Shown here piece after piece: positions 10,800 through 62,960 of a stretch of DNA of 64,000 nt. The stretch is from Octopus vulgaris (Eukaryota), in NCBI GenBank assembly GCA_951406725.2, contig OX597819.1, forward strand, positions 50,282,001-50,346,000. Direction: 5' to 3'. Under the pieces are notes generated by a model. That model had not been told where the DNA came from. It searched no databases and saw only the letters and a list, made by a program, of their open reading frames with translations. The number at the start of each line of letters is the position of its first letter. The stretch's first letter is position 1. Position numbers and translations under genes: made by a program.

Positions 10800-13228
10800 T
10801 TCGAGATAATGAAATTATTTTGAACACACTTTTTGCTGACTTCGATCTTGTGGTTGCTTTTAGTTAATTTTTGAGATGCTGATTTCAAATATGGCATCCA
10901 TTTTTTTTTAACATATCAGGTTATTCCATAGCATAACCCTCTTTTTTGATGCACTGTATAAATAATTTACTTGGTGGGGATAGCTTCAAGCTATAAATTA
11001 TAATGTCAATGAAATACGAAATGATAAATGAAATGTAAGGTAGCATCACCTTTTACTAAATACATACTGTTGATTCTCTATGATGGATAAAACACAAATC
11101 ATTTTACACATACCTTCATACTCACGGAGCAAATTCCCGCTTGAGGGAGAGTCTGGAGTGATTCATGTCTACACAGTCTTTTTGAATACACCAACAGTAG
11201 TCTGCCGTCACGAGTGTGTTCGATCGGTTTTGATATCTCTCCTCCATAATCTTTATTGCTTGATGAAAACGTTCACCATGCTCATCGCTCACGTCTCTGA
11301 GGTTAGCAAGAAATTCATAGAGATAATTATTAAAGAAGTGAAGTTTTATGTTCATGCTGCAGCCTAAAAGATGAAATCTACCATGTAATGTCTCGATCAA
11401 ATCTTGTAGTTTGTAGCCTTTTCACTCCCCCATAATCCTTTCACAGCTCCCACAAATAAATCCCATGCTCTTTTTTCTATATGAGTTATCGACCTTAAGA
11501 AAGTATGGCATTTCATCAATGTACAGGAAATGCTGTACATATGAATTTGTAACAGTTACTCTCCACATTAACAGCTTTGACAAATTACTTCAATAGTCCT
11601 TGATAATATAAAGGGGTAGGGAGATGATTTTCTCTCGCTCAACAAGTAGTTAATATATGATGTTCTTCCCAACAGTCAAAATTTTCCTAACTGGACAGAG
11701 TTTCTGTCCCCAATGTTTTTTTCTTGCTCAGCTATGCCATAAGCACAGGAAATACAGATATTTTGTATATCCTCCTTGTTGGCCAAGTAAAAAGTCGACC
11801 ATTTTTTAGAATCACTCATACAACACATTTGTGTTTATCATACTTAAGTAAATCTAATACAACTTTTATGTGATCATAATTATTTTTTAAGTGTAAAGAG
11901 TGACCAATATGAAGCGCACCAAACAATTTAGACTCTATCTATAAAGATTCTCCATTCACTAGGATCATACTGTTCATTACCCATCGCGTTCAACAGTTCC
12001 GCCACGTCACAACAGTAAACAAAATCTTTTCCAGTTGTAAAGAACACCAAGAGATCTTTTTTCTCCTATTCCGATAAAAAGTCACGTTTGTTTCTTTCTG
12101 CAACAAATTCTTCTCTTTAAGCTTAGAAGCTAACAGCTCTTATAATTTTTTTTTGCAGTTCTAGATCTCTAACTAAATCATTAAGTTCTGCCTGGTTGAG
12201 GTTTTCTTGTTCTTTGGTTGATGTTTCTACAATGTCCATATCACTGTCAATTTCATGATTTACATCTACTTCACATATATCACTTTCACCTTGCAGTGAA
12301 GGTAGATCCTTGAAAACGGGTCCTGGTATTTCATCAGAGTGAAGCACTGGATGACTTGCTGAATCCAGATTTGCGTAACTTATATTCTGCCGCGTTCACT
12401 TGTTATAAACAGAAGTCCTTGTGAGACAAAAGTAACAATCGTTTACAATGTTCTTTGATCCCACCATACCATAGAAATGTCAAATGTTAGTTGTTTCCAT
12501 GTGCCCTTTGTCCATCGGCGTAGATTTTCGACACAGGGTTTACATAGATTGTGCGAGGCTCACGATTTATCCTGATCACCAACTTTAATCTTAAAGTAAG
12601 TCAAGTAGGATCTTTTCACAAAGTCACTAATGTTCATTCTTCTTTGACTTGGTCCTGTAAAACACCCAAATATATAACAAAAACAGTCAGGGCAATTCCA
12701 ACATTTCCTCCGCAATGACGCCATGCTGCTGAACCCCTGCGTTATTTCATGAAAAGAGAGATAAGGAACATTTTTATATATCTAAGTTTATCTAAATAGA
12801 TGTCTAAATACAGAGATAAAATAAATATTCAGCAGAAATGTTTAACTATATCTTCTGTATATTTGTTGATAGTTAGAAGAGATTAACAACGCAGATTAAG
12901 ATGACCGAGCATTGGAGCACACAGTTTTTAGGAAACACACTTCTACACAGGTACATATACTAGGCCGACAGAACGTCACAACCTCATTCACGGAACACTC
13001 AGACCCTTGCTGCTAACGTACCCTACGAAAAACACATCGAAAAATTTCTGAAACATGGAGTATGGATGGAGCCAATATGGACCAGCCCATACAAAAAAAG
13101 CTTGACGTGATAAAAAAACAAAAAAAACAAGAACTATTGCCTTTTTAAACCTCAGTGACCCCAAATTATCCCAGAGCAGATCTCAAACTTAGGTCAGCAG
13201 AAAAAATGTTAGAATTTGTTGGCCAGTG
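10800..13228 (-). mobile_element. Chapaev3-like DNA transposon
   Basis: Right end reads CACTGGCCAACAAA on the minus strand (CAC terminus typical of CMC elements). The subterminal tttt(c/t)gctgac...taattt...ctga motif has a degenerate inverted counterpart at about 10830-10900. The left terminus is not resolved. Confidence 0.6.
11122..12724 (-). pseudogene. Degenerate DNA transposase, probably Chapaev3-type (CMC superfamily)
   Basis: Across frames: MASLRRKCWNCPDCFCYIFG, KVGDQDKS*ASHNLCKPCVENLRRW, DCYFCL, HSDEIPGP, NQAELNDLVRDLEL, FLLGQQGGYTKY, KQFVKA, LGCSMNIKLHF, VSDEHGERFHQAIKIMEERYQ, ADYCW. Several stops and frameshifts. The superfamily label is from memory of the family. Confidence 0.8.
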
Positions 13229-30935: not shown

Positions 30936-31403
30936 TATAGACCGGTCCTGTAGACTGTTGGTTACTCTAGAGTTTCCACGGGCTTGATGTTGTTTCTTCA
31001 GAGAGTGAAGACAAAGCTAAAAGACACATTGCACTAAAGCAACGACAACGGTGAGAATAGTGAAGAAGAAATGTACATCCGACAGACAATAACAACGGCA
31101 AAAATAATAATAGAGATAAAAGTGTCAGAATTTTTTATAACAAATTTGTAGCACCATCAAGAAGGACAACAACAACTATAAGAAAAAGAACAACAATAAT
31201 ACTAATACTAGGCACATGGCCTCATATTTTGAAGGAAGGGGCTAGTCGTTGTAATCGACCCCAGTGCTCAACTGGTACTTATTTAATAAGACTCTGGATG
31301 TATGAATGACAAAGTCGATGTCGGTGGAATTTGGGGCTCTCACGCAATAATGAATAAAGAATCGTATACTAATAGCATGTAATACACTGACATGCACTGT
31401 CCG

Positions 31404-38794: not shown

Positions 38795-38835
38795 ATTTCC
38801 TCTGATGAAAGGCCATTATCCGAAACGTAGTACAT
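38795..38835 (+). ncRNA. Minimal hammerhead ribozyme-like motif (canonical core, weak stems)
   Basis: CTGATGA (38802-38808) aa-gg-ccattat-cc GAAAC (38822-38826) GTA; followed by tcagcgttg, as in the tgagcgt motif of the other copies. Confidence 0.5.
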
Positions 38836-49154: not shown

Positions 49155-50925
49155 CAAGTAAACAACCCAGAAGAATTCTTTGCCACTTCACCTGCGACGA
49201 AAGAGGCAAAAATTGAGTACATCAACATTGAAGATGATGATATCACACTGGCCATAGATGAGATTGACACAAACTCAGCTGCTGGACCTGATGGATTTCC
49301 AGCGATCCTTCTAAAATCGTGCAAACGAGCCCTTGCAAAACCGCTACAGTTTCTTTTTCAGAGCTTTCTTGCAAGTGGTAAGCTCCCAGTCAAATTGAAA
49401 GAGGGGGTAATATGCTTTATCCATAAGGGAGGTAGCAGAGCAGATGCTAAAGATTATAGGCCTATCTCTCTGACCTCACACATCAGCAAAGTCATGGAAC
49501 GAATAGTCCGCAAGAAATTAATCATGTTCCTTGAAGAAAAGGACTTGCTGACTGACACCCAGCATGGATTTCGACCAGGTAGAAGCTGCCTAACACAGCT
49601 CCTGCAACACTATGACTGGGTGTTAAAACAGCTACTAAATGGCTCAAATGTGGATGTGATATATCTTGACTTTGCAAAAGCCTTTGATAAAGTCGACCAC
49701 GGTATGATTTGTCACAAACTGCGTGGTCTCGGCATAGGCGGAAAACTTGGAGAGTGGCTGCACAACTTCCTAAAAGATAGAAGACATGCAGTTGTGACCA
49801 ATGGAGCCACCTCCAAGGAAACAAATAACAAGCGGTGTTCCACAGGGCACTGTCTTGGGGCCACTGCTGTTCATAGTGGGCCTTTCAGACATGCCCCCAG
49901 TTACTAAGATGGCCACCCTTGCTAGCTATGCAGATGACACAAAAGTCTCCCGCACAATACAAAACCCTGAAAATATTGCACATCTGCAACAGGAATTGGA
50001 TACAATATACAGGTGGGCTGAGGACAACAACATGCAGTTTAATGCAGGTAAGTTCCAGTCCCTGCGCTACCGGCACACAAAGGTAAACGACATGCAGACT
50101 GGATACACTGGCCCGGGAAGAATTGCAATCCCTGAGTCAAAATCAGTGCGTGACCTGGGCATTGACACGAGCAATGATGCATCTTTCCAAGTGCATATTA
50201 CTAATCTGGTGATAAAATGCAGACGGCTAGCTGGATGGATTCTCCGAACTTTCAGAACAAGAGAGAAGGAGACACTGATGGTCCTCTGGAAAACTTTCGT
50301 CCTCAGCCGCTTGGACTACCGCTCCCAACTATTGTCACCACACAATATAACACTAACAGCAGAACTCGAAGCAATTCGAAGAAGCTACACAAAGAAGATC
50401 GTCTCAATGCAAAATATCAGTTACTGGGAAAGACTGAAAGTATTAAACCTCTTCTTCCCTAGAGCGAAGGCGGGAGAGATATGCGGTGATATATATCTGG
50501 AAAATCCTGGAGGGTCTTGTCCCAAACTTTGGCATTCAAAGTTACCCCAACCGCAGAACGGGGCGCCACTGCATGGTGCCAAAGATTCCAACATCACCAT
50601 CAAAATACAGGACCAGATACTGCAACAGCTTGGATTTCAGAAGACCACAGCTCTTTAACATCCTCCCTAAATGCCTGAGAGACTTGCATGGTGTGGATGT
50701 GGGTTTCTCTAAAACTAAACTGGATCTCTTCTTGTCGGGGGTCCCAGATGAACCTACCTCACGACAGGAGACACAGATGCGGGCAGCGGCATCGAACTCC
50801 CTTGTTGACCAAGTGCCACGTATCAGAGGTGGATTCACATATTAGTGTAGCTCATTCAGCGGTGGTGCCCCAGCATGGCCGCGGCCTTCGGGCTAAAACA
50901 TTTTTAAGGATTTAAGGATTTAAGG
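49155..50925 (+). mobile_element. 5'-truncated CR1/L2-group LINE with frameshifted reverse transcriptase
   Basis: SAAGPDG, YRPISLTSHISKVMERIV, QHGFRPGRSCLTQLL, YLDFAKAFDKVDH, SGVPQGTVLGPLLFI, YADDTK, VRDLG, FVLSRLDY, YWERLK. Frameshifts near 49820 and 50460; (TTTAAGGA)3 tail. Confidence 0.95.
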
Positions 50926-56957: not shown

Positions 56958-57040
56958 CCCTTGTGCGTGTGTGTGTGTGTGTATACATTACTTACATTAT
57001 TTACATTCGACGGATATTTGTCCTCATGTTGTTCGTTGTT

Positions 57041-57086
57041 AACACAACGTTTCGGCTGATATACCCTCCAGCCTTCTTCAGGTGTC
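57041..57086 (-). ncRNA. Minimal type I hammerhead ribozyme, canonical core
   Basis: Minus strand: GACAC-CUGAAGA-A-GGCUG-gaggguauau-CAGCC-GAAAC-GUU-GUGUU. Stem I GACAC/GUGUU, stem II GGCUG/CAGCC, palindromic AACGUU stem III. Confidence 0.8.
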
Positions 57087-57326
57087 TTGGGGAAATTTCG
57101 AACCTGGATTCTCATTCCTAATTTTTTTCTGCATCTACATAAGAAAGTTAGATGGTTTCAAAGACGAGCTAGTTTTTGATGGAGTTTCTCTATACGTCTC
57201 CATTGAAGTCTAATGTCAGATCCGTACCGATTAGATAATACAGTTCTATATTTCAGAGATGAGGAATTATGTACATTATTTACATTATTTACATTTGAGA
57301 TATTTATCCTCATCTTGTTTGTTGTT

Positions 57327-57372
57327 AACACAACGTTTCAGCTGATATACTCTCCAGCCTCCTTCAGGTGTC
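57327..57372 (-). ncRNA. Hammerhead copy 2 (core CUGAAGG, A9>G)
   Basis: GACAC-CUGAAGG-A-GGCUG...CAGCU-GAAAC-GUU-GUGUU. Confidence 0.65.
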
Positions 57373-57418
57373 TTGGGGAAATTTCGAACCTGGGTTCTAA
57401 TTCCTAAAATTTCCCCAA

Positions 57419-57464
57419 GACACCTAAAGAAGGCTGGAGGGCATATCAGCCGAAACGTTGTGTT
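57419..57464 (+). ncRNA. Hammerhead copy 3 (core CUAAAGA, G5>A), inverted
   Basis: gacac-ctaaaga-a-ggctg-gagggcatat-cagcc-gaaac-gtt-gtgtt. Confidence 0.65.
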
Positions 57465-57711
57465 AACAACAAATAAGATAAGGACAAATATCCGTCGAAT
57501 GTAAAGAATGTAAATAATGTACATAATTCCTCATCTCTGAAATATAGAACTGTGTGTATGTATATATAGACGTTAGAATTTGAAGCTTGGGAGCGATCTG
57601 ACTCTACCAGAGTCTCGTGTTGACCAATGATTTGCGAGTAAAACTTGGCTGAAAGACACCCTGTAGAAACCCTCCGATTATATGAAGCAGCTTAAGTTTA
57701 TGAAGCTTGGT

Positions 57712-58158
57712 CTGTCTAAAAAGAAAGATCTTCAACCAGCGTGTGCTGCCCACCATTACGTATGCGTCAGAAATATGGACTACCAACAAGAGCATTGAAC
57801 ATAAACAGCTGCGGAAAGGTGAATGATGAAGATTAACAAAACGGATAAATGGAGAAGTAACACGATAAGAGTGGGAAAAAAGGTTTGACGGATATTATCT
57901 AGAAAATAAAATATCTGAAATGGTCTTTCACGGGATGTGTTTAGGAGAAAGGACAATAGATTGGATAGCAAATTGACGGAGTGGACACCACGTCCAGAAA
58001 AAGAGAAGGATGGGAAGACTATGCAGAAGTTGGAATGAAATCTTTGTTAAAGTCTTCGGCGCCAAAATATGGATGAGGAAAACATCAGACCGTGGTTGGT
58101 GGAGAGAACATGCTGAGGCCTTTAACTGGCAGTTGACTGAACATGTGCAAGGATGATG
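57712..58158 (+). mobile_element. RTE-clade LINE 3' end (degenerate)
   Basis: CLKRKIFNQRVLPTITYASEIWT, RRKDNR...KLTEWTPR, WMRKTSDRGWWREHAEAFNWQLT; ends gatgatg. Confidence 0.85.
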
Positions 58159-62270: not shown

Positions 62271-62960
62271 AAACAATATGTAATAGAAATCAATTACAAA
62301 AATTATATATATATATAAGAGATTAAAAAAAAATAGATAATACAACGCCTGTTAACAGCTGTGACCAAACAATGTTAGAATTTCTAAATGATAAGAAAAA
62401 AAAATTCCTTAAAAAAACGAAAAAAAGAAACAAATACCACCACCACCACCACCACCACCACCACCAGAACTACCAGAACTACCAGCACCAGCCTCAGCCC
62501 CAGCACCACCACCAGCACCACCACTAGTACCAAACCCACCAGCACCACCACCATCACCACCGCCATCACCACCACCACCACCACCACTAACAACAACAAC
62601 AATAAATCCCTGAAGAAAATATAATTAAAAAAATGTAAAACACAAACCGTGAAGAACGAACGATACGTAAGATAAAACGAAATATATAAATCACTTTCCT
62701 CACAATAGCAAATGATACATTATTGATATTAGTTTTAGTCTTGATAATAGTATTAATTTGATATCTCCACTTGATAACAACGCTGCTTTGGAGATGTTTA
62801 ACCACTTCAAACCAAGTCGATAAAAATGAGAGCAATTTAACGTGTAATTAAGTAGTATCGCTGAAATATCAATCTCGGTGAATGAGTTACACAGTTCATG
62901 ATCAGATAACGTTCAATGTTTCACTGCTATATTGGTCATTCTTCAGCTCGGGTAAATGCT

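Follow-up and report, generated by a model that had tools for sequence, protein, structure and literature searches.

The window is a 64-kb stretch of DNA (G000:C6:50282001-50346000) from a microsatellite-rich animal genome of 2.8 Gb in 227 contigs. Self-BLAST and alignment revealed in it three related copies of one repeat, each with a hammerhead motif, which share pairwise identities of 91-93% (E about 1e-45 to 1e-50); no fourth copy was found elsewhere within the 64 kb. They form a tandem pair plus an inverted copy, a layout of Penelope type that the original prediction, made from the letters alone, had already recognized and that the copy boundaries bear out. The hammerheads of copies 1 and 2 indeed start 286 nt apart, and the arms at 57240-57384 and 57407-57553 are 91.8% complementary and enclose a 22-nt loop, giving the hairpin of about 145 bp that had been proposed. 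On folding, an RNA of all three copies collapses into one long hairpin (MFE -272.7 kcal/mol). The 5' boundary 'ttccta', thought to be common to copies 1 and 2, is approximate, with copy 1 carrying about 7-10 extra bases of the family 3' UTR. The flanks are TG/TA-rich, and no target-site duplication could be called at the locus. The parts are listed below, where L032 denotes a degenerate near-full-length relative.

56962..56983, no strand: (TG)n microsatellite, left insertion flank, from the sequence
56984..57120, minus strand: copy 1, downstream pLTR, module positions 1-135, ending at the tail-less 3' end of the family (self-BLAST, alignment)
57041..57086, minus strand: hammerhead 1, minimal type I, core intact, predicted cut between 57046 and 57045
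57113..57115, minus strand: ATG at module position 6 of copy 1, ATT in copy 2
57121..57127, minus strand: internal-deletion junction from ORF position ~112 to the 3' UTR end, ~2.3 kb missing relative to L032
57128..57239, minus strand: initial 112 nt of the Penelope ORF, carrying a single premature TGA, by similarity to the L032 N-terminus
57240..57406, minus strand: copy 2, upstream pLTR, ~32-nt tail at 57240-57271, 5'-truncated just after the family (AAT)n tract
57327..57372, minus strand: hammerhead 2, damaged by A9G (57361) and C11.1U (57340), predicted site 57332/57331
57407..57553, plus strand: copy 3, inverted 5'-truncated pLTR, positions 23-167, with tail, hairpin partner of copy 2
57419..57464, plus strand: hammerhead 3, damaged by G5A (57426)
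57554-57569: short TG/TA-rich flank after copy 3

Other features of the window include ORF fragments at 11074-12395 (-), which we take to resemble a DNA-transposon protein, and a segment at 57950-58150 (+) that presumably resembles the 3' end of an RTE-type LINE.

Hammerheads and their state

The hammerheads were assigned after the published description of the minimal type (PMC4209133), in the available text of which Cervera and de la Pena list for PLEs a CUGANGA plus GAAA core, an extra base after A9, a G10.1-C11.1 pair, a stem I of 4-5 bp and palindromic positions 15.2-16.2. Hammerhead 1 consists of a 5-bp stem I, CUGAAGA with one extra A, a stem II of 5-6 bp with G10.1-C11.1, then GAAA and a self-complementary four-base stem III (palindromic ACGU). 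It alone shows the complete set, with copy 2 departing at A9 and 11.1 and copy 3 at G5. The prediction of minimal type I hammerheads with palindromic stem III thus stands, but an intact core is confined to copy 1. Changes at A9 and G5 impair cleavage in hammerhead mutagenesis. Copy 2 can alternatively be read with a two-base position 7, which restores G8-A9 and leaves a G-U pair at 10.1-11.1, and its changes could be partly tolerated. Rfam detected no hammerhead at the locus at the gathering score or at E<=10, the sole matches at the latter level being hairpin-driven miRNAs far below their cut-offs. Elsewhere in the window, another motif resembling a hammerhead lies at 38797-38835 (+): it reads CUGAUGA ... 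GAAAC, its stem II is very short, its 29-mer is single in the genome, and it may be a diverged relic or chance. Loose CUGANGA...GAAAC matches at 62918-62946 (-) and 30972-31001 (-) show no clear stem II and are probably due to chance.

The family is abundant and decayed. An exact 35-nt hammerhead pattern with N7 left free has 2,157 matches in the genome (reversed control, 0), and 7 of 85 copies chosen independently of the hammerhead fit it; the family therefore comprises roughly 26,000 copies, with 13,000-64,000 given by binomial arithmetic. The core is no better kept than its surroundings in the 85 unselected copies (variation of 4.5-12.7% in the core vs 4.3-6.9% in the flank) and is intact in 35 of them. 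Variation of the hammerhead among copies represents decay, mostly at CpG, and the single strong subfamily polymorphism is at N7, the free position (19/56). Among 307 pieces, 3' ends lie at 126-135 in 103 and at 156-165 in 161, the reference itself ending at 162. The two ends differ by the 30-40-nt tail seen in PLEs, which copy 1 lacks and copy 3 carries.

The parent family and the origin of the locus

The sequence between copies 1 and 2 had been left in the original prediction as either a recurring part of the element or unrelated host DNA. It belongs to the element: it is ORF sequence contiguous with the tail of copy 2, and in 25 of 29 other loci fetched the 112-nt spacer directly follows the pLTR tail. 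Its bases 1-112 occur in at least 40 other genomic places at 89-95% identity (40 of 294 candidates scored, 41 matches listed), and its translation matches the N-terminus of L032 at 32 of 41 amino acids (78%, E 3e-23). In L032 an ORF of about 2.3 kb ends in a stop and is followed by a 3' UTR and by the hammerhead module seen here. The middle of its ORF matches RVT_1 at E 5.5e-5, under the Pfam cut-off, and the Atlas neighbours of its C-terminal 195 aa, at 0.96-0.97, carry GIY-YIG (19-21% of members) or HTH_animal (12-15%). Pfam gave no GIY-YIG match on this degenerate C-terminal piece itself and nothing on three stop-free pieces; weak BLASTP matches connect the ORF with an intact 781-aa PLE ORF. 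By these similarities the parent family classes as an EN+ Penelope-like element with a single ORF, RT then GIY-YIG, of which the window locus holds the first 112 nt. We presume, from motifs rather than from a tree, that it belongs to the Poseidon clade. L263-L266 (e.g. G000:C16:20835500-20840500) represent another PLE family, a young one in which stop-free frames of 781 aa are numerous; we take it to be Neptune-like, and its ORF shares only 24-35% identity with that of the hammerhead family. Tandem repeats in its 3' UTR bear CCAAT- and CRE-like motifs, and nothing there matches the head of the hammerhead family (see below).

We hold with considerable confidence that the locus is an internally deleted copy of this abundant retroelement, made up of an inverted end, a pLTR, a 112-nt ORF stub and a second pLTR, which likely arose in one insertion and has likely been inactive since. 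Allowing up to 1 mismatch, its deletion junction is found a single time in the genome, while the 19-mer counterpart without deletion occurs 71 times. ORF stubs between two pLTRs are found in many lengths, from about 106 nt to more than 1 kb (in a list with duplicate loci), and since these vary so widely the 112-nt stub is one point of a continuum. The three copies differ from the family majority at 7/167, 8/145 and 6/135 positions (family mean 4.8%, 182 copies), with about 3% private substitutions in each. The N7=A subfamily state is common to all three, and one change absent from every other copy aligned unites copies 2 and 3, as a single event predicts. It is extremely unlikely that they represent separate insertions, or later local duplications of DNA, around host sequence. 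Such an origin would accommodate the mutual differences of 7-9%; however, the spacer continues copy 2 as element ORF, subfamily and private changes are common to the copies, and the same inverted-plus-tandem layout is found again in many family loci. According to the available text of PMC8557442, PLE insertions typically come as partial tandems with a 30-40-bp tail and an inverted 5'-truncated copy alongside.

With a single insertion, the RT of the element would have been primed at a nicked microsatellite and would have copied the 3' pLTR first, then, guided by microhomology, switched to the ORF start of an RNA, continued through the upstream pLTR and afterwards produced the inverted arm. In the parent, the element RNA may be cut by paired minimal hammerheads acting as a dimer, and the pLTR contains a tRNA-like segment with A and B boxes, a likely Pol III promoter at whose start many short copies would have their 5' end. 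At L186, L187, L192, L201 and L006 the ORF stub abuts the 5' edge of this tRNA-like head exactly (positions 76-83), and these joints look as if RT had jumped templates on meeting an RNA end there. The idea that stubs end at a Pol III terminator was rejected, as no T4 run is common to them. At G000:C10:6353413-6399153 the ORF start is present four times on the same strand, 12-20 kb apart, probably through tandem segmental duplication.

The original prediction went further and saw in the tandem hammerheads an active dimer that would release a 286-nt circle, ranking the locus as the best experimental target. Neither claim is supported: the copy 2 core is mutated, the double fold is unfavourable and the junction unique, and in a family of tens of thousands of copies the locus is an ordinary relic. 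That copies 2 and 1 cleave as a dimer, and that the 286-nt RNA circularises and acts as a non-LTR retrozyme, is in our view very unlikely, even though the spacing of 286 nt and the GC content of 35% lie inside the retrozyme range of 170-400 nt and <45% GC (PMC7229834, in part) and both copies retain the palindromic stem III and stem I. The scheme published for dimers (PMC4209133), as we read the part available, lets each core cut the site of the other copy, so cutting copy 1 would fall to the core of copy 2, with its A9G and C11.1U. Relative to the ensemble, adopting the double-hammerhead fold costs 15.6 kcal/mol in the tandem by itself and 110 kcal/mol once the inverted copy is included, energies that exclude tertiary contacts and proteins. 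According to the same sources, minimal PLE hammerheads show poor dimer cleavage in vitro even when intact (PMC4209133), and the hammerheads of retrozymes are canonical, not minimal (PMC7229834). The locus furthermore lacks the tRNA-like head, which is absent from copy 2, and the ATG of copy 2 is ATT. As copy 2 would be tied up in pairing with the inverted arm and the locus lacks the upstream promoter region, the circle is unlikely and the locus makes a poor target for experiments. As for retrozyme membership, the unit is not both tandem and dispersed, its junction being single-copy in the genome, nor is it a non-coding, self-paired unit with a canonical hammerhead: Rfam finds none, ORF sequence is included and the 286-nt circle is 50% paired (z -1.5 vs 100 shuffles).

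A related short unit is repeated on contig C29, which is a further point in favour of such circles. A different junction, of about 276 nt, occurs there five times and nowhere else, with some sharing of flanks, and short units of the family can therefore be copied or duplicated; duplication and retroposition are not separable here, the flanks being partly common. Loci L009 and L167-L171 of this contig contain a hammerhead-ORF-stub unit of about 276-285 nt with a common junction, once as a three-pLTR tandem, and this unit is a better retrozyme-like candidate than the window locus.

The tRNA-like head and transcription of the family

Between the stop codon and the hammerhead, the family 3' UTR carries a segment of about 75 nt with A- and B-box-like motifs, followed by (AAT)n. 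The motifs are present in 41 aligned heads, some from overlapping loci. The best tRNA match of this head is Arg(TCG) with 57.6, followed by Arg(TCT) with 54.9 and Thr with 48.5 (others 34-55, shuffles about 25), a narrow lead within a comparison set of tRNA genes from 30 sampled loci in which many isotypes are absent. It is not called as a tRNA by ARAGORN (15 loci) or Rfam (L060). In 23 of 30 GIY-YIG-bearing copies (one being L032 itself) the ORF end runs straight into the head. A 35-nt head pattern has 1,038 genome matches; among the first 30, a hammerhead follows in 25, and four of the other five lie inside family insertions. The 5' ends of 30 head-centred copies (two rows being arms of one insertion) fall within -20 to +5 of tRNA position 1 in 23 cases, inside the head in four and further upstream in three. 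Hammerhead-centred loci display the same clustering of 5' ends at the head.

The ORF is poor in runs of four or more T. In 30 ORF pieces (28,978 nt; not independent, with 12 overlapping locus ids left out) 12 such runs were observed vs 43-64 expected, and none is common to more than two copies at >=7-fold coverage, so that none is ancestral in the 2.3-kb ORF. Five of six other GIY-YIG families in the genome contain 3.0-9.1 T4 runs per kb (the sixth none in 453 nt); among them, an intact ORF of the same composition has 9. In the family ORF, Phe codons are 71% TTC, and other two-fold pyrimidine codons are 39-48% C-ending. Against a Pol III reading of these counts, the control families belong to another clade, a single ancestor would be expected to have only 3-5 T4 runs, and a synonymous shuffle of the 403 frameable codons was not significant (P 0.16). 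Frameshifted pieces of a LINE reverse-transcriptase ORF (250, 286 and 132 aa) at 49155-50845 (+) of the window served as T-run control; this ORF is likewise T4-poor, with 1 run vs 3.5-3.9 expected.

Since short copies start at the head and the ORF lacks an ancestral T4 run, Pol III transcription with SINE-like offspring is suggested, and on these sequence grounds we lean slightly towards the head being a putative Pol III promoter for the short copies. A rival account, which we rate as possible though short of an even chance, regards the head as a passive relic of a SINE once inserted in the UTR of a master element, the element being transcribed by Pol II, perhaps spliced, and the copies piling up through RT fold-back favoured by a palindrome. 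A 12-nt palindrome does lie at the 5' edge of the head, a 38-47-nt GT..AG segment in the tail gives an in-frame start if spliced, and RNA reads pass from the upstream UTR into the head. The T4-poor LINE ORF and the non-significant shuffle also fit a passive head, as does the D. virilis Penelope with its LINE-like TATA-less internal promoter and intron (PMC2377424, available part). However, copy boundaries lie on the 5' side of the tRNA-like segment, the expected place of a Pol III start, free-standing heads are hardly ever found, and zero ancestral T4 runs in 2.3 kb stand against 3-9 per kb in five of the six other GIY-YIG families. Splicing would also call for a GT..AG skip, and there was none among the 15 of 28 RNA joints listed, at an ORF-start depth of only about 10-25.

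The position of the start codon bears on a wider version of the Pol III reading. Read through the hammerhead, the ATG at module position 6 shares the frame of the ORF in 17 of 23 copies; in 9 of 23 this frame is also free of stops. As this ATG lies upstream of the cut and the frame runs through the hammerhead, cleavage would part it from the ORF and circular ligation would restore the connection. The parent could then be an autonomous Penelope run by Pol III, with a captured tRNA-Arg-like promoter in the pLTR, a transcript of about 2.7 kb, an ORF purged of T4 and a start codon gated by the ribozyme, a reading that we consider tentative and rather doubtful. Cutting by the paired hammerheads would here strip off the promoter and, with it, the start codon that precedes the cut, and protein would be made only from uncut or re-circularised RNA. 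An alternative start would be a downstream ATG combined with the candidate intron of 38-47 nt, and this short intron would point to Pol II, as in the D. virilis Penelope (PMC2377424, same part).

A possible footprint of cleavage was sought in the copies. There are 110 internal 5' ends among 307 distinct pieces, 20 of them at 76-85, after the predicted cut, and four at 66-75; the 20 include internal deletions as well as paired arms of one event, and a palindrome occupies the same place. A preset window of 74-83 contains 16 (P 0.014). A second peak, with 14 ends at 111-115, is perhaps a repeat artefact. The excess after the predicted cut may be a hint, and only a hint, of hammerhead self-cleavage.

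Unstranded RNA reads of a related organism (three runs of one study, about 6% of each) were aligned to two family loci other than that of the window, one of them over a stretch without the ORF side. No pile-up of starts or ends and no cleavage signal was seen at these two loci, and 78-94% of the reads continue into unlike sequence. The hammerhead-to-ORF depth ratio is about 200 in RNA vs about 250 in a DNA-like contig run, depth thus tracking copy number. We read the RNA as passive read-through, in libraries that would lose short or uncapped RNA. The reads neither support nor exclude Pol III transcription or cleavage.

Comparison with known systems

As one decayed copy of a known arrangement, the window locus matters little in itself. 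The family and the PLEs in the available text of PMC8557442 have in common a single RT-then-GIY-YIG ORF, pLTRs, an adjacent inverted truncated copy and a 30-40-nt tail. The window copy differs from described PLEs in being about 2.3 kb shorter, and the family differs from those of that text in the tRNA-like A/B-box segment and (AAT)n tract ahead of the hammerhead in the 3' UTR. Its hammerheads agree with the minimal type I hammerheads of PLEs in the 5-bp stem I, the extra base between 9 and 10.1, G10.1-C11.1 and the palindromic 15.2-16.2, and also in that most motifs lie in truncated copies. The metazoan non-LTR retrozymes (Cervera and de la Pena 2020, PMC7229834, in part) resemble the locus in the spacing of their two type I hammerheads (about 300 nt), their low GC and their co-existence with PLEs. 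They are, however, repeated non-coding units with canonical hammerheads and abundant circular RNA, whereas the window unit is single-copy, includes ORF sequence and carries minimal, mostly damaged hammerheads.

Octopus SINEs OK, OR1 and OR2 were reportedly found to be tRNA-derived by Ohshima and Okada in 1994 (a reference cited in PMC4758252). The family resembles them in its tRNA-derived head, a likeness of description. OR2 is listed as a CORE SINE, whereas the family has only about 10 nt, and no CORE domain, between head and (AAT)n. Repbase or Dfam may already list the short copies as a SINE. A literature search, with subscription papers and repeat databases lying outside it, retrieved no account of a tRNA-like promoter inside a PLE pLTR, and the available parts of PMC6962438 and PMC4758252 do not cover one. 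R2 elements with HDV-like ribozymes (PMC6765202, in part) offer a functional analogy only, namely a non-Pol II transcript, release by a ribozyme and cap-free translation, with RT clade, ribozyme and polymerase all different.

In the available texts, PMC8557442 describes the role of PLE hammerheads as unclear, and PMC7229834 goes no further than proposing that PLEs mobilise small hammerhead elements. If the promoter reading is true, both questions become testable in one genome, because promoter-like head, hammerhead and ORF are still joined and copy ends mark the presumed start and cut. A further comparison is with the SINE-like elements SM-alpha and Sj-alpha of Schistosoma (PMC6765202, same part), which like the family place a Pol III-type promoter before a hammerhead in a short, high-copy retroposon. 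Unlike in SM-alpha, the promoter-like segment and hammerhead still reside in the 3' end of an ORF-bearing PLE (the 23 of 30 GIY-YIG copies), the hammerhead is of the minimal type and the role of Pol III is putative. Should the Pol III reading be true, each head-bearing truncated copy would be a hammerhead SINE, which would illustrate the way in which PLEs give rise to SM-alpha-like elements.
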